Below are positions 6,988-44,090 of a stretch of DNA of 51,481 nucleotides, in pieces. Position 1 is the stretch's first letter. Every line of letters begins with the position of its first letter. A model generated the notes under the pieces. The model ran no database searches and was not told the DNA's origin. It was given only the letters and a program-made list of their open reading frames with translations. The translations under genes and the position numbers were made by a program. Source of the DNA: Deltaproteobacteria bacterium. Its GTDB lineage: Bacteria; Desulfobacterota; JADFXK01. The stretch covers positions 1 to 51,481 of the forward strand of contig JADFXK010000002.1 of assembly GCA_015233625.1 (NCBI GenBank). Reading direction: 5' to 3'.

Positions 6988-7432
6988 CGGTGTAAAAGGT
7001 TTTTCTTCCTTTAATGTGTCGGGCGGCCGCAGAGAACGGTGAAACGGATGTGACCGTAATGGTCACTCCCGGCGAAATGCTAAAGCCTTCTAAAGAAATA
7101 GTTGAGGCGATGGAAGGGACACCGCTGACGACAGACCCCATATCTCCCAGGTAGTCATCATTATTCGAAATGTAGTTGGCCTGAGATTCAATAAACAGGT
7201 TTAGATCATGCTTAGCCGTAACGTCATAGGCCATAGATTGATAATGATAAACCCAAAAGACGGATATGGAAGCCAGAATAGCCAGAATAGTCGCGACCAC
7301 GATCAACTCAACCAGGGTCATACCAATTTGGAAACTGTCCCGAATCAGCTCGGCTCCGGTTTGATCTGACGGACAAGGAGGTCTGGCTGGTTTAATCTGA
7401 CCGGCGAAGGGCTGGGTTGTGCTTCTATACAT
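6959..7432 (-). CDS. prepilin-type N-terminal cleavage/methylation domain protein (pilin/pseudopilin-like)
   Basis: Contains ...FQIG/MTLVELIVVATILAILASI, the class III signal (G / x-T-L-x-E plus hydrophobic helix). The leader is unusually long, so the real start may lie downstream of 7432. The 3' end overlaps the next gene by 29 nt. Confidence 0.65.
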   Translation of the reverse strand: MYRSTTQPFAGQIKPARPPCPSDQTGAELIRDSFQIGMTLVELIVVATILAILASISVFWVYHYQSMAYDVTAKHDLNLFIESQANYISNNDDYLGDMGSVVSGVPSIASTISLEGFSISPGVTITVTSVSPFSAAARHIKGRKTFYTVVKDGTITE

Positions 7433-7504
7433 AAAACCACCAGCTTTCAGACTCAGGGTGATGGTCAGGCCGTTTCACGATCAGATGGGCCCGTGGCCAA
7501 TCCG

Positions 7505-8173: not shown

Positions 8174-8284
8174 CTCGTTCTACTCCCTGGGCCAATAGTC
8201 ACCCGCAGATGTTCTGAATTATCCATCGTGATCTTTCCTCGTGGCAGGTAAATGAACAGCTCTCAACGTTAATTTACTTTTTGT

Positions 8285-9568
8285 TTAGTACAGGTATCCG
8301 GGAAAATTGTCTTGATTCACCACCACGATGCCGCGGTTCGTTTGGGTGTAATGTTTTCTATCTTGAAAAGGGTCATATCCGATGACGGTCCCATCGGGGA
8401 TATAGCACCCCTCATCGATTATGGCCTTTCTGATTTTGCAGTTCCGTCCGATCCTGACGTTTTCCATGATCACGGATTCCTCGACCAAAGAGTAGCTTTC
8501 AAAAATGACGTTATATGAGACCACGCAATGCCGGACGGTGGCGCCGCTGACGATGCAACCGTGGGCAATGATTGAATCTACGGCTTTGCCCACGCGAGGC
8601 TGTTCGGAATGCTCGTGTTCAAATACCGTCTTGACCGGGGGGTACTGCCGTTGATAGGTGCGGATAGGCCATTTTCGTCCATATAGATTAAAATATGGAT
8701 CGACTCCGGTTAAGTCCATATTCGCGTTCCAGTAGGAATCAAGAGTTCCGACGTCTCGCCAATAGCCTGAATCCCGAACTCGCTTTTCTCTCCGGGTTTC
8801 CCGGCGGCCATCGTGCCTGGTGACATAGATAAGATCGTCAATGGCGTTCATTTTGCGGTAGGGGTAAGCATAAACTCGATGATTGTGGATCATCTCCGGG
8901 ATAATTTCCTTGCCGAAATCAACATGGTCGCTATGTTTTAGGATATCCAGCAAAATATCCGTTTTAAAGATGTAAATACCCATGGAGGCTAAGGCGTGCT
9001 CTTCATCACCGGGTATGGATGGGGGGTCTTTTGGCTTTTCCACGAACTCCTTAACTCGATAGTCATCGTCTACCCCGATCACGCCAAATCCGGAGGCGGT
9101 TTCCCGATCCACCTCAATGACCGAGATCGTCATGTCGGCTTGTTTTTCATCATGATATTTCCGGAAGCCGGCGTAATTCATTTTATAAACATGATCCCCG
9201 GAAAGAATAATGGTCAGGTCGGAGCGGTTCCTTTCCAAAAAATAGACATTCTGCCTGATGGAATCGGCGGTGCCCTGGTACCATTCTTCACCAACCATCA
9301 TCTGGGGCGGGACCACGCGTAGATAATGCCCCAAATCCAGGCTAAAGATATTCCACCCAGCTTCTAAGTGCTCCATGAGACTCTGAGATTTATACTGGGG
9401 CAAGACAACGATCTTATAAATACCGGAATTAATGCAGTTTGACAGAGTTAAATCAAGAAGGATATAGATTCCCCCAAAAGGGATGGCCGGTTTGGCCCTG
9501 TTTTTTGTTAGGGGCATCAATCTCTCCCCTTTGCCCCCAGCCATGATAACGGCAACTACGTCAATCAT
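8285..9568 (-). CDS. glgC: glucose-1-phosphate adenylyltransferase
   Basis: N-terminal AVIMAGGKGERLMPLTKNRAKPAIPFGG, WYQGTADSI, SMGIYIFK and a left-handed beta-helix C-terminus. 427 aa. Confidence 0.9.
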   Translation of the reverse strand: MIDVVAVIMAGGKGERLMPLTKNRAKPAIPFGGIYILLDLTLSNCINSGIYKIVVLPQYKSQSLMEHLEAGWNIFSLDLGHYLRVVPPQMMVGEEWYQGTADSIRQNVYFLERNRSDLTIILSGDHVYKMNYAGFRKYHDEKQADMTISVIEVDRETASGFGVIGVDDDYRVKEFVEKPKDPPSIPGDEEHALASMGIYIFKTDILLDILKHSDHVDFGKEIIPEMIHNHRVYAYPYRKMNAIDDLIYVTRHDGRRETRREKRVRDSGYWRDVGTLDSYWNANMDLTGVDPYFNLYGRKWPIRTYQRQYPPVKTVFEHEHSEQPRVGKAVDSIIAHGCIVSGATVRHCVVSYNVIFESYSLVEESVIMENVRIGRNCKIRKAIIDEGCYIPDGTVIGYDPFQDRKHYTQTNRGIVVVNQDNFPGYLY

Positions 9569-24863: not shown

Positions 24864-25863
24864 CGGAGAGTCCTCCTTGGCAAAGTCTGGGACCATATCT
24901 GTGACAGCGGTCTGGTTGGGAATGATCATTCTGCTTGGGTGCCTGACCGGAGTCACCCCGGCCCAGTCCCTGCTACCGGAGGAAGGGACACCAGGGGACC
25001 ACGTTTTTGATATACAGGCCGCCGGCCTGAAGCGTCAGTACATCGTTCACGTGCCGGCAGGATACGATGGGCAGACGTCCGTGCCCGTGGTCATGATGTT
25101 CCACGGCGCAGGCGGCATGGCGCAGACGTCCATGTTGGAGACCGGTTTGGCCGGCAAGGCCGACAAAGAGACATTCCTGGCCGTGTTTCCGGAAGGCTCT
25201 CGTCCTAAGGCGTCAATACGGCCCCGCTTTCTGGGCAATCCCCAAACCTGGAATGATGGCTCGAATCGGTCCAATGTCGGGGCCACCCAAAGAAAAGTTG
25301 ATGATGTCGGTTTCGTCAACGCTCTAATTGACGATTTGATCAGTCGTTTTCGCGTGGATGAGCATCGCATTTACGCCACCGGGTTTTCCAATGGGGCCTC
25401 GATGGTTTTTCGCCTGGGCCGCCAACTTTCCAGACGCCTGGCCGCAATCGCCCCCGTGGCTGGGAGTGACTGGTTAGGGTCGACAAAGATCGACCGGCCC
25501 ATTTCTCTCCTCTATATCACCGGCACTGCGGACCCGCTCAACCCGATCAATGGTGGGGACATGGTCTTGGGGTGGCGGGTGATCGGTCATAAACCACCGG
25601 TCCGGGAACAGATCCAAAGATGGGTGGAGATGCTCGGTTGCCCGCCTGCACCTAAAGTCATTTACGACCGAGATGGGGTCAAAGGGGTGGCCTACAGTCC
25701 GGGCAACGCCGGCTCGGAAGTCGTCTGGTACACCATTGAGCGGATGGGGCATGTTTGGCCGGGAGGGATCCACTTCCTGCCGGAGAAACTGATCGGAAAG
25801 CCGTCCGACAAGATCAAGGCCAACGAGGTGATCTGGGAGTTTTTCCGGAAGCACCCCAAATAA
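24823..25863 (+). CDS. secreted esterase of the PHB-depolymerase / LpqC (COG3509) family
   Basis: VPVVMMFHGAGG, GFSNGASM (GxSxG) and a hydrophobic signal (VWLGMIILLGCLTGVTPAQS). The first roughly 15 residues are repeat-encoded, so the true start may be the in-frame TTG at 24877 or GTG at 24901. Confidence 0.7.
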   Translation: MKPATRNAQHATRTGESSLAKSGTISVTAVWLGMIILLGCLTGVTPAQSLLPEEGTPGDHVFDIQAAGLKRQYIVHVPAGYDGQTSVPVVMMFHGAGGMAQTSMLETGLAGKADKETFLAVFPEGSRPKASIRPRFLGNPQTWNDGSNRSNVGATQRKVDDVGFVNALIDDLISRFRVDEHRIYATGFSNGASMVFRLGRQLSRRLAAIAPVAGSDWLGSTKIDRPISLLYITGTADPLNPINGGDMVLGWRVIGHKPPVREQIQRWVEMLGCPPAPKVIYDRDGVKGVAYSPGNAGSEVVWYTIERMGHVWPGGIHFLPEKLIGKPSDKIKANEVIWEFFRKHPK

Positions 25864-25960
25864 CTTTTGCCTTCTCAACCGGTCGGAAATGTGCTAAAGG
25901 CACCCCCACAGGTGTTCTTTTCGGCCCGTTATCGATATTCAAAATAAGAGGAAATTGCTT

Positions 25961-27901
25961 ATGGCCCAAAATATTACTCAAAAAATACTCTCGGCCCATT
26001 TGGTCGAGGGGCAATTGGAAACCGGTCAGGAAATCGGCATAAAGATCGACCAGACCCTGACTCAAGACGCCACTGGCACCATGGCCTATCTGGAATTTGA
26101 AACTCTGGGCCTCGATCGGGTCAAGACCGAGGTATCGGTTAGTTACGTGGATCACAATCTTCTGCAGGCCGACTTCAAGAATGCCGATGACCATCGTTTC
26201 CTCCAATCCTGCGCGGCTCGGTTCGGGCTGTATTTCTCCCGCCCGGGGAATGGGATTTCCCATCAGGTCCATCTGGAGCGTTTCGGTGTCCCAGGAAAAA
26301 CCCTGTTGGGATCGGACAGCCACACCCCAGCCGGGGGCGGCTTGGGCATGCTGGCCATCGGGGCCGGCGGGATGGATGTGGCCCTGGCCATGGCCGGGTA
26401 TCCATTTTTCTTGAGCACGCCTGCCGTCCTGGGAGTGAATTTAACCGGTCGGCTACCCCGCTGGTCCTCGGCCAAGGATGTCATTTTGGAGATTCTGCGC
26501 CGACTGTCGGTCAAAGGTGGCGTGGGTAAGGTTTTAGAATATTTTGGGCCCGGCGTGGCCACCCTGTCCGTTACCGACCGGGCCGTGATCACCCACATGG
26601 GGGCGGAGCTGGGCGCCACATCGTCGGTTTTTCCATCGGATGAAGAGACCCGGCGATTCCTTACCGCCCAGTCGCGGCCGGGGGATTGGCGTCTGCTGGT
26701 GGCTGATCCAGGGGCTGGTTACGATGCGGTCATGGAAATTGACTTGACTCAGATCGAGCCCATGATCGCCTGCCCCTCGTCACCGGATAACGTCAAGAAA
26801 GTGTCAGAAGTGGCTGGGACTCCCGTAACCCAGGTGATTGTCGGTTCTTCCGGCAATTCTTCTTTCCGGGACCTGATGATGGTGGCCAAGATCATGGCCG
26901 GCCGACAGGTCCATCCGAATGTCAGTCTGGACATCAATCCCGGCAGCCGGCAGGCCTTGGAAAACGTGACTATCCACGACGGGTTGAAGGACCTGATCGG
27001 GTCCGGCGCCCGGATCCATCAATCGGGTTGCCTCGGCTGCATCGGTATGGGCCAGGCCCCGCCCACCGGAGGGGTATCGGTCCGGACCTTCCCCCGGAAC
27101 TTTCCCGGCCGGAGCGGGACAGTCAATGATTTAGTCTACTTATCCAGCCCGGAAACGGCGGCTGCGGCGGCGGTGTTTGGTAAGATCACTTCGCCCACGG
27201 AATTAGGCGATTACCCGGTAGTGACCGAGCCGGAAAAATTTATTATCAATAATAACCTGCTCATCCCGCCGACGGATAATAACCGGGAGGTGGAGATCGT
27301 CCGGGGACCCAATATCAAGCCGTTCCCGGTCTTCGAGGCGGTCCCGGATGAGTTGACCCTGACGGTGCTGACCAAGGTGGGCGACAATATCACCACTGAC
27401 CACATTATGCCGGCCGGGAGCGCCATCCTGCCTTTACGGAGCAATATTCCGGCCATCAGTGAGTTCGTCTTTCGGGATGCCGCCCCCGGATTTGCCGCCC
27501 GAGCCAAGGCCACGGGTGACGGTCTGGTTATTGGGGGCGAAAACTACGGCCAGGGGTCGTCGCGGGAACACGCGGCCATCGCCCCCCGGTATCTGGGGGT
27601 GCGGGCCAAGGTGGTCAAGAGCTTTGCCCGGATCCATCTGGCCAATTTGTGCAACATGGGAATCCTGCCCTTTACCTTTGCCGATCCAGGGCAGTACGAC
27701 CTGATCCAGGAAGGCGACAAAATTATTTTTCGGGGACTGCATGATTTTCTGAAGTCCGACGCGGTGGATTTCACGGCCAGGCTAGAAGGTAAGTCCGGAT
27801 CACAGCAGCTTTCGCTCCGCCTGGCCGCCACCGGCCGGGATCGGGGGATGCTGTTAGCCGGCGGCTTGCTAAACCTGGCCCGAACACAGGCCCGGAAATG
27901 A
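25961..27901 (+). CDS. aconitate hydratase (about 645-aa fused aconitase-family enzyme)
   Basis: IDQTLTQDATG, GSDSHT, GCLGCIGMG (Fe-S Cys ligands), GENYGQGSSREHAA (swivel domain). ATG at 25961 after AAGAGGAAA. Confidence 0.85.
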   Translation: MAQNITQKILSAHLVEGQLETGQEIGIKIDQTLTQDATGTMAYLEFETLGLDRVKTEVSVSYVDHNLLQADFKNADDHRFLQSCAARFGLYFSRPGNGISHQVHLERFGVPGKTLLGSDSHTPAGGGLGMLAIGAGGMDVALAMAGYPFFLSTPAVLGVNLTGRLPRWSSAKDVILEILRRLSVKGGVGKVLEYFGPGVATLSVTDRAVITHMGAELGATSSVFPSDEETRRFLTAQSRPGDWRLLVADPGAGYDAVMEIDLTQIEPMIACPSSPDNVKKVSEVAGTPVTQVIVGSSGNSSFRDLMMVAKIMAGRQVHPNVSLDINPGSRQALENVTIHDGLKDLIGSGARIHQSGCLGCIGMGQAPPTGGVSVRTFPRNFPGRSGTVNDLVYLSSPETAAAAAVFGKITSPTELGDYPVVTEPEKFIINNNLLIPPTDNNREVEIVRGPNIKPFPVFEAVPDELTLTVLTKVGDNITTDHIMPAGSAILPLRSNIPAISEFVFRDAAPGFAARAKATGDGLVIGGENYGQGSSREHAAIAPRYLGVRAKVVKSFARIHLANLCNMGILPFTFADPGQYDLIQEGDKIIFRGLHDFLKSDAVDFTARLEGKSGSQQLSLRLAATGRDRGMLLAGGLLNLARTQARK

Positions 27902-30072
27902 AAATTGTGACCCAGAATTTCAAGAATGGACAGGTCAGATTAATCGACGCGCCGCCGCCCCAGCTCCAACCGGGCGGTGTGCTCGTCCGGACCAGGGCCT
28001 CCCTGATCAGCGTGGGCACGGACCGGTCCATGATCCACCTGTCCCAAAAGACTTCCCTGCAAAAAGCCAAGGAACGGCCGGACCTGGTCAAGCGGGTCAT
28101 TGGCAAAATCAAGACGGACGGCCTGATGAACACTTATCGGGCCGTCAAGAATATCATGGAAGCCCCGCTGCCACTGGGTTACTCCCTGGCCGGGGAGGTG
28201 TCCGGCGTGGGGGCCGGGGCCGAGCTGTTTCAGGTGGGAGATCGGGTGGCTTGCGCGGGGGCCGGGTACGCCAATCATGCCGAGCAGGTCTGGGTCCCTA
28301 AGAATTTAGTCGTGCCGGCGCCCGACACCCTATCCTGGGATGAAGCCTCCTTCGTCACGCTGGGCGCGATCGCCGTGCACGGGGTGCGTCAGGCGGAGGT
28401 CCAATTCGGGGCCACCGTGGCCATTATCGGGTTGGGCCTGGTCGGGCAACTGGCCGCCCGGATCTGCCTGGCCGCTGGTTACCGGGTGGTGGGGGTGGAT
28501 ATTGATCCGGCCCGGAATGAACTAGCCCGATTGAGCGGGGTCCTGGCCGCGTCCGAACCCTCGGAAGAGGTGGTTCACCAGGTGCTAACCATTTCCCGGG
28601 GCATCGGGGCCGACGCCGTAATTGTCTGCGCCGCGGCTAAAGACAGCAGCGATACCTTAAAGTTGGCCGCGGACCTGGTCAAAGACCGGGGTCGGGTGGT
28701 CGTGGTGGGTGATGTGGGCATGGACATTCCCCGCCGCGAATACTACGCCAAGGAAATAGAAGTCCGCCTGTCCCGGTCGTACGGTCCGGGACGGTATGAT
28801 CCTGATTACGAAGAAAAGGGCCGGGGTTACCCGCCGGGATATGTCCGGTGGACCGAGACCGAGAATATGTCTTCCTTTCTGGACCTGGTGGCGGCCGGCC
28901 GCATCCGCCTGGATGATCTGATATCCCACAGCTTTCCCATTGATCAGGCCGAGGTGGCCTACGGGCTGGTCACCGGACAATCGGCCGAGCCGGTGTTAGG
29001 CGTAGTCCTGACCTATCCGGAGGAGCCGGATCTCCGCCCCAGACGAGACATCAACCTCGGCTCCCGCCCGGCCGCGGCGTCCCCAGGCCGGATCAACCTG
29101 GGTCTGATCGGGGCCGGGGCCTTTGCCAAGGGCGTCCTGCTCCCGGCTTTTATGGCCCAGCGTGAGGTTTCCCTGACCGGAGTGGCCGCGGCCAAAGGAT
29201 ATACGGCCCAGGTGGTGGCGGAAAGATATCAGGCCGAGTTCAGCGCGTCGGAAGCTGAGACCGTCCTGGCTGACCCTCAAATCACCGCGGTGGCCATCGC
29301 CACCCGGCACGACTCCCATGCCGCCCTGGCGATTCAGGCCTTAAACCGGGGCAAGCACGTCTTCCTGGAGAAACCGCTGTGTATTCATGAAGAGGAATTG
29401 TCGGCCGTGATGACCGCGGTGGCGGCTCACCCCGAACTGGTCCTGATGGTGGGATTCAATCGCCGGTTCAGCCCCCTGGCCGGGCAATTAAAGGCCCATT
29501 TCGCGCCCCGGTCGGCCCCCCTGGCCCTGATCTACCGGGTCAATGCCGGCCGCATTCCATTGGGCGACAAATCGAGCTGGGTCCATGATCCGGATCTGGG
29601 CGGTGGCCGGATTATCGGCGAGGTGTGCCATTTCGTGGATCTGCTGCTCTTTCTCACCGGGGCCCGGCCAGTCTGGGTTCAGGCTACCTCCGCAGCCCAG
29701 GGCCGGCAGACTCAGGCCACCAATGACGTGGTCACCTTGACCATCGCCTTGGATGACGGCTCCCTGGGCACCATCCACTATTTCGCCAATGGCAGCCGGG
29801 CCTATCCCAAGGAACGGGTGGAGGTCTTCGGCCAGGACAAGACGGCTGTCTTAGACAACTTCCGAACTCTGGAACTGGCTTCGGGCCAGGGCACGCGCAA
29901 GATCAAGAGAATGAATCAACAGAAAGGCTTTGAGGAAGAAGTCGCGGCTTTCATCCAGGGCATCCGGGAAAACACCTACCCCATCCCCTGGCCAGATCTC
30001 ATGGACACCACCCTGGTCACCTTCCGAGCGTTAGATTCGTTGAGGACGGGGTTACCGGTAAAGGTGGGGTGA
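27898..30072 (+). CDS. bi-domain oxidoreductase (N-terminal Zn-ADH/MDR-like, C-terminal Gfo/Idh/MocA-like)
   Basis: 724 aa. MDR-like GYSLAGEV...GDRVACAG...IIGLGLVGQL. Second Rossmann fold LGLIGAGAFAK plus EKPL and GFNRRF (Gfo/Idh/MocA). Start overlaps the aconitase stop (ATGA). Confidence 0.8.
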   Translation: MKIVTQNFKNGQVRLIDAPPPQLQPGGVLVRTRASLISVGTDRSMIHLSQKTSLQKAKERPDLVKRVIGKIKTDGLMNTYRAVKNIMEAPLPLGYSLAGEVSGVGAGAELFQVGDRVACAGAGYANHAEQVWVPKNLVVPAPDTLSWDEASFVTLGAIAVHGVRQAEVQFGATVAIIGLGLVGQLAARICLAAGYRVVGVDIDPARNELARLSGVLAASEPSEEVVHQVLTISRGIGADAVIVCAAAKDSSDTLKLAADLVKDRGRVVVVGDVGMDIPRREYYAKEIEVRLSRSYGPGRYDPDYEEKGRGYPPGYVRWTETENMSSFLDLVAAGRIRLDDLISHSFPIDQAEVAYGLVTGQSAEPVLGVVLTYPEEPDLRPRRDINLGSRPAAASPGRINLGLIGAGAFAKGVLLPAFMAQREVSLTGVAAAKGYTAQVVAERYQAEFSASEAETVLADPQITAVAIATRHDSHAALAIQALNRGKHVFLEKPLCIHEEELSAVMTAVAAHPELVLMVGFNRRFSPLAGQLKAHFAPRSAPLALIYRVNAGRIPLGDKSSWVHDPDLGGGRIIGEVCHFVDLLLFLTGARPVWVQATSAAQGRQTQATNDVVTLTIALDDGSLGTIHYFANGSRAYPKERVEVFGQDKTAVLDNFRTLELASGQGTRKIKRMNQQKGFEEEVAAFIQGIRENTYPIPWPDLMDTTLVTFRALDSLRTGLPVKVG

Positions 30073-30268
30073 GGGTCGGTTGGCGTCGGGCCATTGGACT
30101 ATCAGGCGCAAGAGGTTGCACCAGCCCTTTCTTTATTGTTGACTAATCTGAACACAACATATAGAATAAACAAGTAATAATACTGCGTCGGAAGTGTCCA
30201 GGAATCTATATCGGCGATGATTTACTCATTGGAATAGCACTTGGGGAAATCAAGCTTCGAGGTTTGCA

Positions 30269-31237
30269 TTGACAACAAACCATCATGACAGGTTTTTCAA
30301 GAAGATGTTTTCGGGCCAAGACCTGGCCAGGGATTTTTTCGCCAATTACTTGCCTGAGTCCGTTCTGGGTCAACTTGACCTAAGCACCCTTGCGACCACA
30401 ACAGATTCCTTTGTGGATGACCAATTAAGGGCTCATTTTTCGGACCTTGTTTACCGGGTGAACATAAAGCAGTCCCAGCCGGCATATGTCTGTATCTTGT
30501 TGGAGCATAAGAGCCATCAGGACAGGCGGGTGACGCTTCAACTCTTGAGATACATGATTCAAATGTGGGCCTATATCGATTCCCAACAGCCGACTTCGGA
30601 ATATTTACCCGTTATCATTCCATTGGTCTTCTATCATGGGACCACCACCTGGGAGGGATCAACCAGGTTTAAGTCATTATTTGACGCGACGGCTGAATTA
30701 AGACAATATCTTCCTGATTTCACTTATCTTCTTTTGGACTTATCAACTTTGGCGGATGAGGATATCAAAGGAGATGTCAAGACTAAAATTACCTTGCTCC
30801 TCCAGAAGCATATCCACGATCCTAAATTAGTTTCCCAATTAGCTGACATAGCTACTCTTTACCACGAAATACCACCAGGTCCCGATCAGATTGAATTTCT
30901 TAAAGTTGTTGCTCAGTATTTGATTTTCACCGATAAATTAACAAAGGAAGAGATAAAGGTCTTTTTGGACCGGGCTACTTCAGGTAAAGGAGATGAAATT
31001 ATGCCCACCGTCGTAGAAGAATTTATCGAAGAAGGATACCAGAAGGGCGCCTTGGTTAAGGCGCGGGAAGATATTCTTGATGGCATTGAAATTCGATTCG
31101 GCCAGGTTCCCAATGAAGTTACTGAATCTATAAGTGGGTTATCTGATACCATGGTATTGAAATCACTGCTTAGGCAGGCTTTTGTATCAAAGAATCTAGA
31201 TGAATTCATTCAGGCGCTCAGAAAATCCAAGAACTAA
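30269..31237 (+). CDS. Rpn-family recombination-promoting nuclease / putative transposase (YhgA-like, PD-(D/E)XK)
   Basis: N-terminal HDRFFKKMFS...ARDFFANYLP, DLVYRV...ILLEHKS (D...E.K core). 322 aa with a TTG start as tracked. Confidence 0.8.
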   Translation: MTTNHHDRFFKKMFSGQDLARDFFANYLPESVLGQLDLSTLATTTDSFVDDQLRAHFSDLVYRVNIKQSQPAYVCILLEHKSHQDRRVTLQLLRYMIQMWAYIDSQQPTSEYLPVIIPLVFYHGTTTWEGSTRFKSLFDATAELRQYLPDFTYLLLDLSTLADEDIKGDVKTKITLLLQKHIHDPKLVSQLADIATLYHEIPPGPDQIEFLKVVAQYLIFTDKLTKEEIKVFLDRATSGKGDEIMPTVVEEFIEEGYQKGALVKAREDILDGIEIRFGQVPNEVTESISGLSDTMVLKSLLRQAFVSKNLDEFIQALRKSKN

Positions 31238-31334
31238 CCATCATCCTCTGGCCCCGGCCCGGTTCCAGACAGCGGTGGTCGCCTTCCGATCCCTGGATTC
31301 GTTGAGGACGGGCTTACCGGATGAGCGTCTTTGA
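31238..31334 (+). pseudogene. displaced, diverged copy (B) of the oxidoreductase 3' end
   Basis: Reads ...FQTAVVAFRSLDSLRTGLPDERL* versus the native ...TTLVTFRALDSLRTGLPVKVG*. The core 31275-31320 matches 30014-30059 at about 38 of 46 nt by hand alignment. Starts right after the Rpn stop. Confidence 0.7.
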
Positions 31335-31565: not shown

Positions 31566-32156
31566 TTACCGTCTGGCCGGGGCGGCGGCGGGGAATTCGA
31601 CCTTGTCGTAGATTTCTTGCAGCGGCAGGCGGCAATCGATGGAATCCAGGGAAATTGTTCCGGTCAAATCATCAACCTCCGACATAACCCATTGTGTGCC
31701 CTGACGGACAAAGTGCTCCACCCGGGCTTGATCCTGGGCGATGATGACATACTCCTGGAGCGAAGGAAGGCGGCGGTATAGGGCAAACTTTCCACCTCGA
31801 TCGTAGGCTTCGGTAGAGTCGGACAATACTTCCATAATCACCGTGGGGTTAAGTAACGTGTCCAGGTGATCATCTTCAAAAAGAGGTTCCCCGCAGACAG
31901 CCGCCGCATCCGGGTAAGTGTACAAACCCGTGGCGCTGACCTTGACCCGCATGTCATTGACGTATATGGCGCACTCCCGCCCTCGAAACTGGGTGCTCAG
32001 TTCGCGGGCAATATTAACCGTGATTTGATTGTGTTGGCGGCCGGCTCCGGCCAGGGCAAAAATCTGACCGTTGAAATATTCACTCTTGTGTCCGGCGGCG
32101 CGCTCCAAGGCCAGGTATTCCTCCGGGGTGACTACTGATTGGGCTAATGGTTCCAT
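31566..32156 (-). CDS. Uma2-family (DUF820) restriction-endonuclease-like protein
   Basis: TPEEYLALERAAGHKSEYFNGQIFALAG...H..I..NI, then PD...EVLS core. 196 aa. Confidence 0.8.
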   Translation of the reverse strand: MEPLAQSVVTPEEYLALERAAGHKSEYFNGQIFALAGAGRQHNQITVNIARELSTQFRGRECAIYVNDMRVKVSATGLYTYPDAAAVCGEPLFEDDHLDTLLNPTVIMEVLSDSTEAYDRGGKFALYRRLPSLQEYVIIAQDQARVEHFVRQGTQWVMSEVDDLTGTISLDSIDCRLPLQEIYDKVEFPAAAPARR

Positions 32157-32350: not shown

Positions 32351-32396
32351 TCAAGGGCGGACTCATCTAACTCAGGTTATCCCGGCCAAGACACTT

Positions 32397-32537
32397 GATG
32401 AATTCGTTCAGGCGCTCAGGAAATCCAAGAACTAATCTCCTCCAATCCCCGACCTCGGCTCCAGGGGACAGGGGTGGTCACCTTCCGAGTGTTAGATTCG
32501 TTGAGGACGGGGTTACCGGTCAAGGTGGGGTGAGGGT
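32397..32537 (+). pseudogene. Rpn 3'-end remnant (32397-32435) fused to displaced oxidoreductase 3' end, copy C (32436-32537)
   Basis: 32397-32435 matches 31199-31237 at 37 of 39 nt (DEFVQALRKSKN*). 32475-32537 matches 30014-30076 at 61 of 63 nt (TFRVLDSLRTGLPVKVG*). Confidence 0.8.
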
Positions 32538-36257: not shown

Positions 36258-37157
36258 TTAATCCTCCTGATCCCCCTGTATCAGCTTTCTGGTGATGTCC
36301 ATGAATGCCTTTAAGGATGGAGACAGCCACTTTTCCTGATACCGGATCATCAAAATGGCCACCTCGATCCGGCCTTCCACCCAGGGCAGAGCGAGCAGCC
36401 TGCATTGGGCCAGGTCATCGGCCACCGCCACTTCCGGCAGGATGGTCAGGCCCACTCCGGCCATGACGCTCCGTTTCATCGCTTCCACGCTGTAAAACTC
36501 CAGGCTGTGGTCATGGGCTACCCCCGCCTGGTCCAGCATCTTCTCAAATATCCGCCTGTAACTACAATCCACCCTCGAAAAAAGAAAGGTCTTGCCGGCC
36601 AGGTCCGCTGTCTGGACGACTGGTTTCAAGGCCAATGGGCAGTCCGGGCCGGCGACCAGGACCAGGTGCTCGCAGCCCAGCGATTCCACCACCAGATCCG
36701 CGGCCTGGATGGACTCGGTCAGCAGGAAGGCCAGATCGGTCAGACCCTTGCGGAGGTCATTGGCCAGGGCCTCGTGGGTGCAGGTGATGAAATTTAGTTG
36801 CACGTTGGGAAAACGGGAGTGGAATTCCCTGATTACCGGGGGCAATCGGTGCACGCCGAAGCTCTCCGGAATTCTTATGGTTAAGGAGCCTTGAGGCTGA
36901 CTTGACCCTGACATTTCCGCCAGGGTTTCATCCACCAGGTTGACTATCTTCTCCGCATGATTCAACAACCGCAGGCCAGCTTCGGTCAGGATCACCCGCC
37001 GGCCCAGCCGATCAAACAGCGGCACGCCCAGCTCTTCCTCCAGGGATTGAATCTGCGCCGAAATACTGGACTGGGCATAGTGCAACTGCTCCGCCGCCCG
37101 GTTGAAGTTCAATAGCCGGGCCACTGTCCTGAATGTCCTGAGCTGTCGGATGTCCAT
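36258..37157 (-). CDS. LysR-family transcriptional regulator
   Basis: MDIRQLRTFRTVARLLNFNRAAEQLHYAQSSISAQIQSLEEELG (wHTH) plus a substrate-binding domain. 299 aa. Confidence 0.9.
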   Translation of the reverse strand: MDIRQLRTFRTVARLLNFNRAAEQLHYAQSSISAQIQSLEEELGVPLFDRLGRRVILTEAGLRLLNHAEKIVNLVDETLAEMSGSSQPQGSLTIRIPESFGVHRLPPVIREFHSRFPNVQLNFITCTHEALANDLRKGLTDLAFLLTESIQAADLVVESLGCEHLVLVAGPDCPLALKPVVQTADLAGKTFLFSRVDCSYRRIFEKMLDQAGVAHDHSLEFYSVEAMKRSVMAGVGLTILPEVAVADDLAQCRLLALPWVEGRIEVAILMIRYQEKWLSPSLKAFMDITRKLIQGDQED

Positions 37158-37555
37158 TTATTCTCCTTCGATCATTGATTACGATTGACATGGTCAAAAC
37201 TAATCGTTTGACACGATATATAATATTTAGTTATTATACGTACCGATAGTACGGACTGCAACCTAAAATTGAAGGAGATGGAAAGATGAACAGACCAGGG
37301 ATTGAATCTGGGCCGAAATACCAGGTTGGACATAGGGCAACTGCTCCGCCGCTCGGTTGAAGTTCAATAGCCGGGCCACTGTCCTGAATGTCCTGAGTTG
37401 TCGGATGTCAGGTTCTTCTCCTTCGATCACTATTTTCGATTGACCCGATCAGAACTAATCGTTTGACACGATAGTTGATGTCCAGTTATTATATATACAG
37501 ATAGAGCGCAGTGCAACCTAAAACTAAAGGAGATTGAAAAATGAACAGAACAGAG
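37083..37555 (+). repeat. tandem duplication, period 255 bp, of lysR 5' end + divergent promoter + first codons of the downstream gene
   Basis: caactgctccgccgc... starts at 37083 and again at 37338. atgaacaga... occurs at 37286 and again at 37541. The lysR-derived part is near-identical and the intergenic part is more diverged. In copy 2 the lysR ATG is lost. Confidence 0.8.
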
Positions 37556-38709: not shown

Positions 38710-39519
38710 TCACTTCTTCTCGTGCGGAGACGGTTGGCCATAAATGGTCAGCATCAACTCCGGCCCAACCAGGCTGAAAACCGGCTCCTTTCCGGAATGG
38801 GCCAAACTTTCGGACAGAATCTTTCTAACGCCTTCACCTCGGGCTTCGATATATGACGCCCCAGTCTCTTTGTTCTTCATTTTCGACATGAAGGACACCA
38901 AGAGCTGGTTTCTGGTATATTGTCGGTAGGGTAACGTTTCCAGGGTGATGGTATTGGGTAAACCGCCCGGACTCATCAGCTCCAGGCGGTCGTCATACAT
39001 GAATAGCCTGATTTTGGATCCGGAAATAGAGTAATCCCGGTGCGCCACAGCATTCACCAGGGCTTCATAAACGGGCGAAAGAGAATATTGGGGATAATCC
39101 TTGCGCCCTATCTTCTTTGTCGCCGGCTTGAGCATAAATCGTTTGACAAAGGCTAAAGCCCCGTCAATCTGGTGATCGACCGGTCCCTCAATTTTTTCCT
39201 CATGAATCAGGTCATCCGAATCAGGATAGAACCCCCGATAGACCACTGACTGGATATAGGCTGAAGGCAAATGACGCTGCGGATTAAGGCCGAAGCTCAG
39301 CAGACCGGCCACAGTAGGCCTGATCAGCCCCTCCTCATCCTTAGTCATCGCCCTGGTGTTTATTAATAGATCCCTTAATGGAAGAGGGAAGGGGCCGAAG
39401 TAATTTCTTATGGCCGTGTCGTTCAAGTCGCTTTCGACAGCCGTCGGTACGGCCATTTCGTCGAAAGAATCTTTCCCGGCGGCTAGCTGACTCCTGATTT
39501 CTTCCGTGGTCTGGAACAT
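38710..39519 (-). CDS. COG2865-type ATP-binding / putative DNA-binding regulator lacking the usual N-terminal AlbA_2 (Schlafen-like) domain
   Basis: NAVAHRDYSISGSKIRLFMYDDRLELMSPGGLP (HATPase_c_4-like) with a C-terminal wHTH-like part. Only 269 aa, and only 119 nt of upstream space. Confidence 0.6.
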   Translation of the reverse strand: MFQTTEEIRSQLAAGKDSFDEMAVPTAVESDLNDTAIRNYFGPFPLPLRDLLINTRAMTKDEEGLIRPTVAGLLSFGLNPQRHLPSAYIQSVVYRGFYPDSDDLIHEEKIEGPVDHQIDGALAFVKRFMLKPATKKIGRKDYPQYSLSPVYEALVNAVAHRDYSISGSKIRLFMYDDRLELMSPGGLPNTITLETLPYRQYTRNQLLVSFMSKMKNKETGASYIEARGEGVRKILSESLAHSGKEPVFSLVGPELMLTIYGQPSPHEKK

Positions 39520-39628
39520 AGTTGATCAAACCCCGTAACAACATAATCATATCATCTGGATGGTGTCTGTTATCCAACCTGGTCGAGCGGGAGACTTGAT
39601 GGACATTGATCAGACGCAGGCCACAACG
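39504..39628 (-). pseudogene. displaced, diverged copy of the adenylate cyclase 3' end plus its downstream spacer
   Basis: The minus strand reads ...LINVHQVSRSTRLDNRHH versus the cyclase C-terminus ...QINVYQVSRLTRLENRH*. About 48 of 62 nt are identical to 42331-42392 at a constant offset of 2770. Homology continues past the stop (TTATGTYGT, TAYGTTCCA). Confidence 0.7.
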
Positions 39629-39638
39629 CCTGGGCCAG

Positions 39639-40544
39639 TCAGGACCGCCGGCTAAGAGCTTCGGCCATGACCTCCCAGAAGGCTCCGGAAAGGGACAGGT
39701 CGAGATGGAAAACCGGAATTTTGGCGGCGATGGCCAATGCCTGGTCCAAACGCCGGAGGCGGCGAAGTCGGAGCTGGTCGGCATTTAGGCCCCGGTCTCT
39801 AATATTGGACTGCTGGGCGATGGCGGCGGCTATTTCCGCGGCGGCCGGAGCGCGCAACATGGCTTCGGCCCGATCCACACCGGACTGGTACAAACAAAAT
39901 ATGGCGCCGAGCGGTAGAGATTGGGCCACATCCCAGCGTCCACCGGGGCCGCCGTCGAAAAAGTCGCTGAAGGTCGGCCAGGGATGGACGCGAAAGCCTT
40001 GCTCGGCGTCGGGCACCACCAGGGCGGCGTCGTCGGACCAGGAACGCCAGGGGGCCGGCAAGCGGCGACTGGCTGTGCTTTTGCCGGTACCACCGGGCCC
40101 GGCCAACAAAATACCCTGTCCCTGCCATTCCGCCAGGGCCGCATGTAGGAGCCAGACCCCTTGAGGTTCCAGGTGGCTGATCAGGCCGGCGGCGGCAAAG
40201 AGCATTTGGATGTAGACATCGGCACCGCCGTGGGGAAGGCGAACCACCATCTCTTCATCTGCTACGGGTGAGGGGTCGTGCGGTCCGCAAAGAAATATAC
40301 GGCGAGTCCCGTTGGCCGCGGCGCCACGCTGCAAGGGTTGCCCGACCGCCTCTGCCAGGGTGGCCACGACCGGGCCGGTAGAGGCTCCTGCAATCATATT
40401 CGCTGCCTGGCATCCGGAAAGAGTAAGCGTAAAACCAAGGTCCATAACTTCATCCAGATTCAGGGAAACGGCTCCGCCGAACATCGCGCGTAGGAAATAG
40501 CGAGCGAGTCGGTCAGGGTTGTTTCTTCGATCTTTTTTATTCAA
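39639..40544 (-). CDS. HprK-related P-loop kinase-like protein (HPr-rel-A / ScmC-like)
   Basis: 301 aa. GILLAGPGGTGKSTASRRL P-loop in a C-terminal HPr-kinase-like context. Gene neighbours are PqqD and the nucleotidyltransferase. Confidence 0.6.
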   Translation of the reverse strand: MNKKDRRNNPDRLARYFLRAMFGGAVSLNLDEVMDLGFTLTLSGCQAANMIAGASTGPVVATLAEAVGQPLQRGAAANGTRRIFLCGPHDPSPVADEEMVVRLPHGGADVYIQMLFAAAGLISHLEPQGVWLLHAALAEWQGQGILLAGPGGTGKSTASRRLPAPWRSWSDDAALVVPDAEQGFRVHPWPTFSDFFDGGPGGRWDVAQSLPLGAIFCLYQSGVDRAEAMLRAPAAAEIAAAIAQQSNIRDRGLNADQLRLRRLRRLDQALAIAAKIPVFHLDLSLSGAFWEVMAEALSRRS

Positions 40545-40620
40545 GGCGTCATTTTCGTTAGCTATAAAGTTGTATCGGCTTTGGTCCTGAAACCGGCAAA
40601 AGGCAGGATCAGGCCTGCGG

Positions 40621-40905
40621 CTAATCCGATAGAGACAGCAGTCCGGCTTCGACCAATTGCTCCAAATAGGCCCGGAGATGGTCGGCTAATTCCACCGGCG
40701 CGCTGCGGAACTGGCGGGATATGGCGGCCGGTAGATCGGCCATGCTACGCCGGCCGTCGATCAGACGCCACAGGGCCACACCGACGGGATTTATGCCGAA
40801 AGCGTCGGCCGTGTCCGGGTTATATAGCAGGGCCCAGTCGTCCAACTCTTCCCGCAGGACGACAACCGGATTGGCGATGGGATAGGACGTGTCGCTGATG
40901 TTCAT
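40621..40905 (-). CDS. PqqD-family peptide chaperone (RiPP recognition element)
   Basis: 94 aa. ...VVVLREELDDWALLYNPDTADAFGINPVGVALWRLIDGRRSMADL...LEQLVEAGLL is the typical PqqD/RRE pattern. Confidence 0.8.
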   Translation of the reverse strand: MNISDTSYPIANPVVVLREELDDWALLYNPDTADAFGINPVGVALWRLIDGRRSMADLPAAISRQFRSAPVELADHLRAYLEQLVEAGLLSLSD

Positions 40906-40915
40906 ATTGGCTCCG

Positions 40916-42121
40916 TTATAGTTTATCTGTCAAGTTTGGTGTTGATTCATAAAGTCGGCATAAGTCCAATTCCGCCCGGACAGCCCGGCGCTCCCGGGAA
41001 CTGGTAACCAGCCGGGCCAGGGCTGCATAGGCGGAAGCTATCCTGTCCCGCGCCCGGCTCAGGTAGACCCGAGATAGGCCGGCCTGTTGCGGTTGCCGGA
41101 AGGCTTGCTCCATGACCTCCGGCTTAGGCATCAACAGCCGCCATAGGCGAACGGGCCAGGGCGCCTTACCCCGGCGGAAGTCATCCAGCAGTTTCACAAT
41201 ACTCCAGCCGTCGGTCGCGAACGGGTAAACTTCGCACATCAACCATTCCGCCTGCTCCACCGCCCACGCCAACTCGCGGTGCAGCCGAGCCCCAAATTCG
41301 GGCGGCAGGGGGGCCTCAGCCAGGTTTTGAGCCAGGACCAGGAACGTGCCGACCGCTTGATGGACGCCCCAGTCGCGCATCCGTTGGTCTAAAACCGTCC
41401 AGTCCGGAGGTCGATGCCGGATGCAGGCGGCGACATCGTAGAGTGTACTCAAGCCGACGTGGAAGCGGTGATGGTACCCGGCGTGGATACAAACATGGAG
41501 CAAGAAATCCTCGGGCGACAGCGTCCGGCAAGGCTGCCCCAGCAACCTGTCTAGCCGGGATCTGTGCCAGACGTCCTCCATGTCGATGGCCAGGCCGCTC
41601 TTGGGGGCTTCCAGGGCCCAGTGCACCTCGACCGCGGTATGCCCGTCTTTGAACAAAGGGGTGGTCCCGTCCTCAGTGTCCATGAAGTCGGTAAAGCCCG
41701 GCCCGGTCGGTGGCGGCGACCACCCTATCCCTCGCATGACATCCAGGGCGGTGAAGGTGTCTTCCTTGCGGACCAGCCAGTCGAGGTCGGACATCGGGCG
41801 GACCCACGAGTCCTTATAAGCGGCGTAGGCCAGGTAGGCGCCCTTTAAGGGGATTACGTCAATGTGGGCCTGGTGCAGGGCGTCCAGGATGGTCCTAATA
41901 TCACCCTGCCGTCGCTGGTCTTCCGCTATACTGTAGAGGCTCGCCTGGCGTAAGGTTTGACGGGCCGCCTCCGGCACCAGATGTTGAAGTCGGTGCTGGA
42001 CAATAGTCCGCCACAGTCGATAGGTCAGATTCTGCCGCCGGGTCCATTGGAGAAGTGCGTCCCAATCGCCGGCCTGGGCGCGGTCCAGCCGCTGGGTCAG
42101 GACATCGCATTGGTCAGGCAT
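40916..42121 (-). CDS. nucleotidyltransferase-family protein (PF14907-like, uncharacterised)
   Basis: 401 aa. ...IDVIPLKGAYLA...MSDLDWLV...W.LE pattern, as in the NTP_transf_5 proteins found beside PqqD/HPr-kinase genes. GGAG 6 nt upstream. Confidence 0.65.
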   Translation of the reverse strand: MPDQCDVLTQRLDRAQAGDWDALLQWTRRQNLTYRLWRTIVQHRLQHLVPEAARQTLRQASLYSIAEDQRRQGDIRTILDALHQAHIDVIPLKGAYLAYAAYKDSWVRPMSDLDWLVRKEDTFTALDVMRGIGWSPPPTGPGFTDFMDTEDGTTPLFKDGHTAVEVHWALEAPKSGLAIDMEDVWHRSRLDRLLGQPCRTLSPEDFLLHVCIHAGYHHRFHVGLSTLYDVAACIRHRPPDWTVLDQRMRDWGVHQAVGTFLVLAQNLAEAPLPPEFGARLHRELAWAVEQAEWLMCEVYPFATDGWSIVKLLDDFRRGKAPWPVRLWRLLMPKPEVMEQAFRQPQQAGLSRVYLSRARDRIASAYAALARLVTSSRERRAVRAELDLCRLYESTPNLTDKL

Positions 42122-42278
42122 GATCGTCTCCTTTTAGGCCGGTGTTGGGAACCGGAGTCAGCAACTCGGTCGGGGTCAACTCCAACATCATGGGTTCCCG
42201 CAAGGTCGGGAACATACTGGTGCCGCGATAGACCATCCACGGAAAGGCTAAGTCGACAGGGGAGGTGAAGGGGTGCAT
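42114..42278 (-). CDS. unlisted 54-aa ORF with signal-peptidase-I-like Ser box (precursor peptide candidate or S26 peptidase remnant)
   Basis: My own translation: MHPFTSPVDLAFPWMVYRGTSMFPTLREPMMLELTPTELLTPVPNTGLKGDDHA*. GGAG lies 9 nt upstream. The stop overlaps the next ATG (ATGCCTGA). GTSMFPTL matches the GxSMxPTL box of S26 peptidases. Confidence 0.45.
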   Translation of the reverse strand: MHPFTSPVDLAFPWMVYRGTSMFPTLREPMMLELTPTELLTPVPNTGLKGDDHA

Positions 42279-42329
42279 GATAACGATCTCCGTATGGTGG
42301 AACGTAGCTAATTATACGACATAAGAGCG

Positions 42330-44090
42330 CTAGTGCCTGTTCTCCAACCTGGTCAGCCGGGAGACTTGATAGACATTGATTTGGCCCAGGCCGCGCACGG
42401 TGATGACTTCTTGTTCGGCGACCACGTTATCCTGAATCAGATCATAGGTCGGGGTGTCCACCAACATGAGCTGATCAGTCGCCTGGCTTTCCAATTTGGC
42501 GGCCAGGTTGACTGAATTTCCCAGGTAGGTGAATTCTCTTTTGATATAGTTTCCCAGGATAATTGCATAGATTTCACCAGTGCTGACGCCCATGCGGACC
42601 TGGATATCGGTATCGACGCCATAGACCTGGCGGAGTTTGCGGTTTTTGTGGATCAAAGCCCGATGGATATCCACTCCGGCTTTGATGGCGTTGAGGGCTA
42701 CGGCCGGCACCGGCTGATTTCCGTGTTCAAATATGGCCATGAAACCATCGCCTAAGAATTTGTCGATGTAACCATCATGTTGATAAATGATTAAACACAG
42801 GCGGTCGATTAATTCATCGATCATTTTCACGGTCATATCTTCGTCCGAGCGTTTCATTAGCCCGCTGAAGCCGACGATATCGACAAAGATGGTGGAGGCG
42901 AATATCTTGGCCCGGTTCTTGGCCGCAGTAAAGGGATTGATGCTCCGGCCCAGCCGGTTTCTGATGAACATGGAGTCGTTGTAGACCAGATCTGAGGTCA
43001 GCAACTCCGCAGACAGGTATTTATCAATCACTCTGGCCGTATTAAAGGCCCGAATAATCACGCTGTTAATTCCGAGTATCATGCCCACTTTGGCCGATTG
43101 CCGGAGATACTCAAAGGCTTCCGTCTCCCGGTTGGTGGCGTAGTACATGGCTCCCATCTCGTACAGGATATCGGCCATAATTTGGTCTTGATCTTGCCCG
43201 CGCTCCCGGGCCACCCTGATGATGGCGTGAATTTTTTTCTCGGCCTGGTCATATTCATGCATGGTTTTGTGGATCTTGGCAGCCAGCAGTCCGGCACTAA
43301 GCCGGTCTAAGTGCATCCCTTCTTCACTGAATTTTTGCTCCAACTCCAGAGCATCGGCCAGGGCCTCTTCTAAGAGATTTGAGACAACGCGCCATTCCGC
43401 CTGTTCCAATCTGGCCTTTAGCAACCCTTTAGTATAATTAAGTTTAGAGAAAATATCCACTGCTTCATCGAGCCATCGGCCCACCGCTTGTTCCTTTAGG
43501 TCCATCAACCGATTGATCCGGGAAAAATTGACCAGGGAATAGGCGTAAATCATTGAAGAAGTGTCGTCGGCGTTTTTTAAGTATCTGGAGTACGAATCTT
43601 CTTTGTCTAAGGCGATATACTTTCTGGCCCGGCTGAACCGGTTGAGAGCCAGATTGGCGGTGCCCAGTAACGAATAAACTTCACCGGAAAACTTAGCCTG
43701 GGAGGGATGGGTCAAGGTCATATTCAGAGCTTGATTGAGGTAGAATTCCGCATCGAGGTAGTTTTTTTGGGCCAGATGGACGTACCCCAAAGATAGATAT
43801 ATCTTCAGTTTCCACCGGTCAAAAACGGGGTCATCGGTTGTCTCCAACGTCTCCAGGGCTTCATCCAGCAGTTCTTCGGCCCGGGGAAGGTAATTTGTCT
43901 TTTGCAAAATCAGGTTCTTGTACCATTTCGTAACTGCGGCTAGGAAGGGGTTATCCATGTATCCGGCCACCCCACGCTCAAACTCAGCCAGGGTTTTGAG
44001 AATTTGCTCGGTAGAACCGGAAATATCCAGGAAGTGAAAGGTATCCCCAATCTTCTTGATATCGTTTTCCAGAGAGTTAGAGTTTGGCAT
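42330..44090 (-). CDS. class III adenylate/guanylate cyclase with N-terminal TPR-like repeats
   Basis: C-terminal FVDIVGFSGL, KFLGDGFMAIF and GNSVNLAAKLES. The N-terminal 380 aa are helical-repeat rich. 586 aa. Confidence 0.85.
   Translation of the reverse strand: MPNSNSLENDIKKIGDTFHFLDISGSTEQILKTLAEFERGVAGYMDNPFLAAVTKWYKNLILQKTNYLPRAEELLDEALETLETTDDPVFDRWKLKIYLSLGYVHLAQKNYLDAEFYLNQALNMTLTHPSQAKFSGEVYSLLGTANLALNRFSRARKYIALDKEDSYSRYLKNADDTSSMIYAYSLVNFSRINRLMDLKEQAVGRWLDEAVDIFSKLNYTKGLLKARLEQAEWRVVSNLLEEALADALELEQKFSEEGMHLDRLSAGLLAAKIHKTMHEYDQAEKKIHAIIRVARERGQDQDQIMADILYEMGAMYYATNRETEAFEYLRQSAKVGMILGINSVIIRAFNTARVIDKYLSAELLTSDLVYNDSMFIRNRLGRSINPFTAAKNRAKIFASTIFVDIVGFSGLMKRSDEDMTVKMIDELIDRLCLIIYQHDGYIDKFLGDGFMAIFEHGNQPVPAVALNAIKAGVDIHRALIHKNRKLRQVYGVDTDIQVRMGVSTGEIYAIILGNYIKREFTYLGNSVNLAAKLESQATDQLMLVDTPTYDLIQDNVVAEQEVITVRGLGQINVYQVSRLTRLENRH

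Follow-up and report, generated by a model that had tools for sequence, protein, structure and literature searches.

A putative radical-SAM-less SynChlorMet cluster fragment captured behind a cyclase gene in a deltaproteobacterial contig

For lasso peptides, the chemistry of tailoring by a kinase and a nucleotidyltransferase is established. Homologues of HPr kinase phosphorylate the C-terminal Ser of lasso precursors, and in pseudomycoidin hexoses are added to that phosphate by a nucleotidyltransferase (PMC8498205). The proteins concerned are the PadeK-type HPr-kinase homologue of paeninodin, the PsmN-type nucleotidyltransferase of pseudomycoidin and the PqqD-like B1 protein. The HPr-rel-A set also comprises a P-loop kinase and a PqqD-family chaperone, and the SynChlorMet (SCM) cassette contains ScmD (TIGR04248), ScmC (TIGR04249) and the radical S-adenosylmethionine (radical-SAM) proteins ScmE/ScmF. 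A literature search found no experimental characterisation of the SCM cassette, and HPr, kinases and nucleotidyltransferases go unmentioned in the RRE-Finder paper. Here, we focus on a 2.7-kb gene cassette that encodes these three protein types and lies directly behind the gene of a class III adenylate/guanylate cyclase. It is found in a 51,481-nt stretch of contig JADFXK010000002.1 (the window), a metagenome-assembled contig of an uncultured 'Deltaproteobacteria' metagenome-assembled genome (MAG). An earlier description of the same DNA, made from the letters alone (the sequence-only reading), had proposed that the cassette was inserted between duplicated copies of the cyclase 3' end.

The segment 39623–42329 is a lineage-specific insertion of 2.7 kb that directly follows the cyclase stop codon, with the last ~60–64 nt of the gene duplicated. 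Searching species-representative genomes with the cyclase protein as query returned three close relatives (L001–L003) and one distant fourth. The close relatives are the Deltaproteobacteria-labelled MAGs nDJH6bin12, nDJH8bin5 and nDJH2bin9, part of a published MAG series of magnetotactic bacteria, and their cyclase proteins are 93–96% identical to that of the window. In BLASTN comparisons, nucleotide identity with L001–L003 was ~90% on both sides of the cassette, and positions 39623–42328 had no counterpart in any of the three. In each of them the cyclase stop is followed ~24 nt later by a 386-aa COG2865-like gene, which is the empty site that the sequence-only reading had suggested looking for, and no SCM genes are found at these loci. 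In alignment A1, the right repeat copy tracks the relatives' empty-site sequence as far as the stop codon, where the similarity ends. The left copy takes up the relatives' sequence at GGCCTG, ~64 nt ahead of the stop, and the match runs on across the spacer and into the downstream gene. Since the segment between them is missing from the relatives, and native sequence extends to the stop in the right copy and begins at GGCCTG in the left, the insertion is specific to this lineage. The proposed position between two cyclase 3' ends was thus borne out.

The two repeat copies (family D1) align over 60 nt with 83% identity, at the offset of 2770 nt that had been proposed. Their local alignment score of 73 lies far above that of dinucleotide-shuffled controls (mean 16.1, sd 2.3, maximum 27, n=1000), so the repeat is significant against shuffled sequence. 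The repeat core motif occurs exactly twice in the whole window. The sequence-only reading had extended the repeat past the stop codon and through the spacer to a decayed start codon of the next gene (CTACGTTCCA versus CTATGTTCCA). This extension scored 15, a value reached by 15.6% of shuffles, and the duplication covers only ~60–64 nt of cyclase coding sequence. The 51-nt spacer at the upstream edge of the insert has no significant similarity to the empty-site spacer. A promoter-like ATAACA-16-TATGAT element, recognised only by its match to the consensus, extends from the repeat remnant into the native spacer (39573–39546).

Next, we considered to which family the cassette belongs. The three protein types named from the sequence were recovered, namely a PqqD-type RiPP recognition element (RRE; RiPPs are ribosomally synthesised and post-translationally modified peptides), a P-loop kinase related to HPr kinase and a PF14907 nucleotidyltransferase, with matches to PF05402 and PF14907. 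Their assignment to the HPr-rel-A set did not hold. The kinase-like protein scored 25.4 bits with TIGR04352 (HprK-related kinase A; cut-off 200), with the P-loop region alone aligning, and the RRE protein scored 27.9 bits with TIGR04353 (PqqD_rel_X; cut-off 35), so that the likeness to HPr-rel-A goes no further than the kinds of protein involved: both sets pair a PqqD-family chaperone with a P-loop kinase that is a distant relative of HprK. The SCM models fit instead. The kinase-like protein reached 152.4 bits with the NCBIfam ScmC model TIGR04249 (cut-off 125), has a precomputed PF27840 match and is named 'SynChlorMet cassette protein ScmC' by NCBI. The 94-aa protein scored 90.8 bits with the ScmD model TIGR04248, formally below its cut-off of 100. 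It carries the PIANPVVVLREE.DDWA.L.NPDTA signature and is 41–50% identical to ScmD proteins of radical-SAM-containing SCM clusters, compared with 16–17% to other PqqD proteins, including those of lasso clusters. The cassette shares its three protein types with lasso tailoring sets. Unlike these, it has neither a lasso cyclase nor a protease, and its ScmC is not the lasso-kinase equivalog. No Asn-synthetase-like lasso cyclase (C) or transglutaminase-like leader peptidase (B2) domain was found in the cassette or its neighbours, as the sequence-only reading had noted. The relevant missing partners, however, are those of SCM clusters.

In surveyed SCM loci, an NTP_transf_5 nucleotidyltransferase and an S24/S26-like peptidase are regular companions of ScmC, and the cassette contains the former together with what may be a stub of the latter. 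Based on these similarities, the cassette appears to be a radical-SAM-less fragment of an SCM cluster that was captured after the cyclase gene, and its genes are of a kind that NCBI already annotates. The membership is partial: ScmC exceeds the cut-off of its model, ScmD is borderline, and the radical-SAM pair and the precursor are missing from the window. All ScmC homologues found are PF27840 proteins, the nearest of which is just 52% identical. This protein (P0002) is encoded on a 3.2-kb contig in a canonical-looking context (cut ORF, 83 aa, ScmC, 240 aa), which does not reveal a second trio without radical-SAM genes. As the nearest homologue of the nucleotidyltransferase is only 38% identical, no donor lineage can be named. 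We also considered a defence-system reading of the cassette, which was dropped as PADLOC gave no match for any cassette protein.

The product of the 54-aa open reading frame (ORF) at the start of the cassette had been put forward for binding tests with the PqqD protein. The ORF most plausibly represents a 5' stub of an SCM cluster's S24/S26-like peptidase gene, from which ~180 codons were probably deleted. Profile searches gave no Pfam or NCBIfam match even at E 10, and phmmer against a library of 1.84 billion proteins returned only the ORF itself, so its identity depends on a targeted comparison with the peptidase-like ORFs that adjoin ScmC. These ORFs are ~220–240 aa long. Residues 14–42 of the 54-aa ORF (WMVYRGTSMFPTLREPMMLELTP...) match the N-terminal catalytic-Ser region in all 24 of them, with identity of up to 75% across 20 aa (E 7e-7). 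The ORF retains the catalytic-Ser motif GTSMFPTL, whereas the remaining ~180 codons are gone. The same motif region is found in the peptidase half of the ScmC-S26 fusion protein P0027, and the full-length peptidase of locus L015 has weak Peptidase_S24/Peptidase_S26 matches (PF00717 E 2e-4). These matches point to a truncated peptidase gene rather than a substrate peptide.

To compare the cassette with canonical SCM loci, we examined ScmC contexts through exact-protein look-ups and in 80 metagenome loci. The usual layout is a small Cys-rich ORF, PqqD, a radical-SAM/SPASM gene, a second radical-SAM gene and ScmC, then in many cases an S24/S26-like peptidase, followed by an ATP-binding cassette (ABC) transporter and NTP_transf_5. 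Upstream flanks of 4 kb or more were available for 34 ScmC loci, of which 32 contained radical-SAM genes, 32 PqqD genes and 29 ABC genes. The 20 loci with flanks of this length on both sides of ScmC contained radical-SAM, PqqD and ABC genes in 19 cases each and the nucleotidyltransferase in 17. The sole locus among these without radical-SAM genes, L075, encodes a ScmC-peptidase fusion, which matches Peptidase_S26, followed by the nucleotidyltransferase. None of the missing partners was found in the 51-kb window: tblastn with the PqqE-like ScmE/ScmF radical-SAM/SPASM proteins of L005 and L006 gave no match, there is no ABC gene, and neither the leader motif nor the CTAG-repeat core of an SCM precursor (YExPxVVxLxE plus CTAG repeats) occurs in any frame. 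The gene order also differs. In the window it is peptidase stub, nucleotidyltransferase, ScmD, ScmC, whereas the common order is ScmD, ScmE, ScmF, ScmC, peptidase, ABC, nucleotidyltransferase. The order could be seen as a circular permutation of the canonical one, a sign of a circular intermediate, but we did not accept it as evidence for this, as natural variants with the nucleotidyltransferase beside PqqD exist (L030 and L083).

The small Cys-rich ORFs of SCM loci share a leader of the form K(Y)E(T/S)PxVVxL(D/E)E and, behind it, a core built from C(T/S)AGxxAxxxC repeats. Such precursor-like ORFs were seen in 14 SCM loci (examples in Table 1) and have no Pfam match. They are probably the SCM precursor peptides.

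Table 1. Features of the cassette locus in the window, and precursor-like ORFs in SCM loci elsewhere.
Feature	Position	Strand	Basis or remark
COG2865-like gene (HATPase_c_4), 269 aa, downstream neighbour	38710–39519	-	Pfam
Native spacer upstream of COG2865-like gene	39520–39562	-	Aligns to empty-site spacer with 3-nt insertion
Left repeat copy, decayed non-coding remnant of cyclase 3' end, stop lost	39563–39622	-	Repeat family D1; alignment of relatives
ScmC P-loop kinase-like protein, longest ORF 301 aa	39639–40544	-	TIGR04249 152 bits; PF27840
ScmD-type PqqD-family peptide chaperone (RRE), 94 aa	40621–40905	-	PF05402 E 2e-12; TIGR04248 90.8 bits
NTP_transf_5 nucleotidyltransferase, 401 aa, intact	40916–42121	-	PF14907 E 3.1e-52, full-length match
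54-aa ORF, probable peptidase 5' stub	42114–42278	-	Motif match to peptidase-like ORFs adjoining ScmC
51-nt spacer, upstream edge of insert	42279–42329	-	TATAAT present; GGAG ~9 nt before ATG of 54-aa ORF
Right repeat copy, working (native) cyclase 3' end	42333–42392	-	Follows relatives' empty-site sequence to stop codon, then diverges
TPR and class III adenylate/guanylate cyclase gene, 586 aa, insertion target	42330–44090	-	Pfam Guanylate_cyc E 1.7e-20 and TPR families
SCM precursor-like ORFs, L005	9138–9371, 9493–9654		
SCM precursor-like ORF, L091	1609–1785		
SCM precursor-like ORF, L006	7134–7316		
Further loci with SCM precursor-like ORFs: L023, L029, L033, L044, L050, L054, L059, L082, L088			

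ORF calling confirmed that the cassette consists of four tightly packed, co-directional genes between 39639 and 42278 (Table 1). The gap of 51 nt between the cyclase stop and the 54-aa ORF and that of ~10 nt between the kinase stop and the left repeat agree with the values given before. The window proteins correspond to NCBI entries MBF0548979–MBF0548982, and the record of the 54-aa ORF carries the locus tag HQK60_00465. Base composition sets the cassette apart from its surroundings. Hand counts of 68% and 44% GC, which had been given for one 100-nt stretch of the cassette and one of the cyclase gene, are exact for these stretches (0.68 and 0.44), but the contrast is smaller over whole features: 61.3% in the cassette, 49.5% in the cyclase gene and 51.0% in the COG2865-like gene. 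The GC content at third codon positions (GC3) is 0.66–0.75 in the cassette compared with 0.60–0.63 in neighbouring genes. A terminator scan revealed no terminator-like site between the cyclase gene and the cassette. The cassette is probably transcribed either together with the cyclase gene, by read-through, or from a promoter within the 51-nt spacer.

The two enzymes of the cassette retain their conserved residues. ScmC has the expected residue at all 22 columns that are invariant among 20 aligned sequences, with the Walker A motif GGTGKST among them. The nucleotidyltransferase retained 13 of 13 invariant columns, among them the D-x-D pair D112 and D114. The AlphaFold2 model of ScmC has a pLDDT of 85.8 and a pTM of 0.83. 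The best Foldseek matches of this model in the Protein Data Bank (PDB) are phosphoenolpyruvate carboxykinases (PEPCKs; E 4e-8, TM ~0.5), whereas a profile search of PDB sequences with ScmC gave matches to HPr kinase/phosphatase only (E 0.004–0.02). As the catalytic domain of HprK has a PEPCK-like fold, these two results agree. ScmC is thus predicted to have a PEPCK-like nucleotide-binding fold with a Walker A motif. The NCBI start codon of ScmC (M50 at 40397, 252 aa) cuts off two confidently predicted N-terminal beta-strands that are aligned in homologues. In the model, M34 at 40445 fits the predicted fold better and is a more plausible start.

The divergence of the repeats provides information about the age of the insertion. 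At four-fold sites of the cyclase gene, the window differs from the sister species by 0.15–0.23, with roughly equal distances among the window, L001 and the L002/L003 pair. The two repeat copies show 10 differences over 61 positions, and comparison of the left copy with the consensus of the relatives gives 13 over 63 (hand count, alignment A1). As the divergence of the left copy is at or above the expectation for the window-specific branch, we infer that the insertion is about as old as the split of the sister species. Under 10–16% neutral substitution, the chance of an ORF staying open would be 0.013–0.001 for the nucleotidyltransferase, 0.12–0.04 for ScmC and 0.46–0.30 for ScmD. The fact that all three ORFs are open and their invariant residues kept, despite these odds, suggests that the intact nucleotidyltransferase, ScmD and ScmC are under purifying selection.

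What the three proteins may do can be proposed by analogy with lasso peptide tailoring. A Gemmatimonadales lasso cluster (L093) contains a weak ScmC-family kinase, a PqqD protein and an NTP_transf_5 protein around the lasso B2 and C genes. By this comparison, the trio of RRE, kinase and nucleotidyltransferase looks like a tailoring module that is common to two RiPP classes. ScmD would bind the leader of a peptide that is encoded elsewhere, ScmC would phosphorylate a hydroxyl side chain, and the PF14907 enzyme would add a nucleotidyl or glycosyl group to the phosphate, as in phosphorylated and phosphoglycosylated lasso peptides.

Our overall reading, to which we give somewhat better than even chances, is that an SCM fragment entered by an old duplicative insertion and that the trio was retained as a functional tailoring module. 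The insertion would have been duplicative either through a short tandem duplication followed by insertion at the duplication junction, or through repair of a staggered break or template switching. The duplicative form would have survived with the cyclase C-terminus intact and the downstream gene still joined to its own upstream sequence. As the duplication ends at the stop codon and the downstream promoter-like site lies partly in the left copy, such an insertion leaves both packed neighbours intact. A number of points weigh against this reading as a whole. The evidence comes from one metagenome-assembled contig. The lone trio is not an established system, with just one other surveyed locus (L075) lacking radical-SAM genes, and its activity in trans is an assumption, as the 51 kb contain neither a substrate peptide nor a class-defining enzyme. 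A truncated peptidase gene together with missing radical-SAM and ABC genes is what a decaying remnant is expected to look like. The selection argument assumes that the repeats were identical at insertion and that the left copy is neutral, draws on only ~60 sites and uses a single cassette-bearing genome, which without a second one allows no dN/dS estimate. The mechanism has left neither inverted repeats nor a recombinase as a clue, and any junction microhomology has been erased.

The same observations can be explained in other ways. The cassette could be a non-functional relic, either the debris of a once-complete SCM cluster or a segment that arrived broken, in which three open genes have not yet decayed. 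We regard this as doubtful, although some points favour it: the peptidase is down to a 54-aa stub, the radical-SAM pair, ABC exporter and precursor are missing even though they are companions of ScmC in 19 of 20 well-flanked loci, and the adjoining COG2865-like gene lost a domain too, so the region tolerates loss. The nucleotidyltransferase, ScmD and ScmC are nevertheless full length with every invariant residue kept, and no pseudogene debris separates the tightly packed genes. Given drift over the same time as that of the left repeat copy, all three would remain open with a probability of ~1e-3 to 1e-5. A different origin, as the remnant of a site-specific integrative element, is unlikely. 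In that case an island aimed at the cyclase 3' end would have brought its own attP copy, the repeats would be attL and attR, and the integrase would later have been deleted. The duplication does end with the target gene's stop codon, the classic arrangement for 3'-end islands, and islets with attL/attR share with this locus an insert of foreign composition after a stop, imperfect 3'-end repeats and an empty site in relatives. The left copy (~79%) is also more diverged than its surroundings (~90%), as would be expected of an element-borne copy, and exceeds the expectation for the window branch (binomial P ~0.01–0.03), but neutral decay explains this extra divergence equally well. Unlike such islets, the insert measures only 2.7 kb, has no recombinase and is flanked by copies that are 83% identical, with just 13 nt as the longest exact identity between them. 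No integrase, excisionase or remnant of either is present, and the four ORFs fill the whole insert. This agrees with the sequence-only reading, which had found no recombinase at the cassette: all ORFs between the repeats are accounted for, none in or beside the insert encodes one, and the nearest nuclease/transposase-like gene (Transposase_31, 30269–31237) is ~8 kb away. The insert ends bear no terminal inverted repeats, the insertion site has no tRNA, and neither similar DNA nor ScmC was found in plasmid (protein) and phage (DNA) collections.

The insert could also be ancestral. If duplication and insertion predated the four species, the sisters would have deleted the insert precisely through the 60-nt repeats, and recombination between direct repeats would recreate the observed empty site exactly. 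The divergence of the left copy (13/63) lies at the high end for a window-specific event, and the near-equal distances between the window, L001 and the L002/L003 pair would permit this history. It is improbable all the same, as it needs at least one and probably two independent precise losses, none of the relatives carries the private variants of the left copy in its cyclase 3' end, and the contrast in GC and GC3 is still strong. We favour duplication with insertion, or repair of a staggered break or by template switching, over both a decayed integrase island and an ancestral insert that was precisely lost. An assembly chimera, in which a GC-rich segment of another organism was spliced into the contig, is very hard to credit. 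The source MAG does belong to a series of magnetically enriched metagenomes, with sister-bin coverage of 2.6–5.8x, and the composition is unlike that of the flanks. A chimera, however, would require two false joins back to the syntenic position and would have to create a stop-less, indel-bearing copy of the cyclase end that is 79–81% identical to every known relative. With 13 nt as the longest exact match between the copies, there is also no assembler k-mer bridge.

Apart from the cassette, the contig contains other duplications. A 255-nt tandem duplication in exact register (37040–37294 and 37295–37549, 85% identity) covers the 5' end of a LysR gene and the divergent promoter region that it shares with a C_GCAxxG gene. 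It is single-copy in L001 (13534–13795) and leaves an N-terminal LysR pseudo-fragment. A 43-nt element from the 3' end of a 724-aa oxidoreductase gene occurs in three copies (30015–30057, 31277–31319 and 32476–32518), and L003 has copies too. Those of the window bracket the Transposase_31/Rpn-family gene and then a Uma2-family nuclease gene (31566–32156, PADLOC PDC-S03). The Uma2 gene is also bracketed by copies of the Rpn 3' end (31190–31237 and 32388–32435). The Rpn and Uma2 brackets are imperfect repeats of 45–130 nt of upstream sequence, 83–90% identical like the LysR duplication, and look like nested duplicative insertions. Together, the LysR duplication and the brackets with the 43-nt element mean that short duplications and duplicative insertions recur in this contig. 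The oxidoreductase locus had been described as having the same architecture as the cassette, again without a recombinase, which is only partly right. The high-GC block at 25103–30186 (58–65% GC), which contains an aconitase-family gene and a fused ADH/GFO-IDH-MocA oxidoreductase, is 90% identical in L003 and so is not a recent insert specific to the window, and the repeat, which is present three times, brackets the Transposase_31/Rpn and Uma2 genes.

The downstream neighbour of the cassette was altered as well. The COG2865-like protein has lost its SLFN_AlbA_2 domain in frame and is 269 aa long, compared with 386 aa in the orthologues of L001–L003. In a BLASTP alignment with the L003 orthologue (7154–8314), residues 1–22 align with 6–27 and residues 19–241 with 164–386, with a short DS(F/L)(D/A)E(M/F) repeat where the deletion joins. 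Among the PADLOC models, a pAgo-associated one matches the full-length protein (E ~1e-23). The cyclase domain matches the PADLOC PycC (Pycsar cyclase) models with a best E of 5e-20, probably through generic class III cyclase similarity. Defence-like genes are found around 30–39 kb, namely a ResIII/helicase gene with matches of the type IV REase-like kind, Uma2, Rpn and the Schlafen-like COG2865 gene. As gene content differs among the three close relatives here, this neighbourhood is suggested to be a variable island.

The horizontal acquisition of the cassette is real but fairly ordinary, and its immediate significance is modest, since it concerns one metagenome-assembled contig with genes that the NCBI pipeline had already named. 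It may be one of several products of a recombinase-independent route of duplicative integration that is active in this lineage, a speculative idea to which we assign a low probability. If true, foreign cassettes would enter right after stop codons with long target duplications, possibly aided by a PD-(D/E)XK nuclease, and the RRE-kinase-nucleotidyltransferase trio would be an autonomous module for phospho-nucleotidylation of a peptide or protein that was placed under the control of the cyclase promoter as a captured set. The comparison of filled and empty sites provides a well-documented natural case of a small foreign segment that entered a packed gene junction and, owing to a duplication of ~60 nt of the target, left both neighbours unbroken. 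Should the trio work in the absence of radical-SAM partners, the RRE-kinase-nucleotidyltransferase unit would amount to a portable module for tailoring that can be moved and kept alone, and it would offer a compact entry point to the chemistry of the SynChlorMet family.

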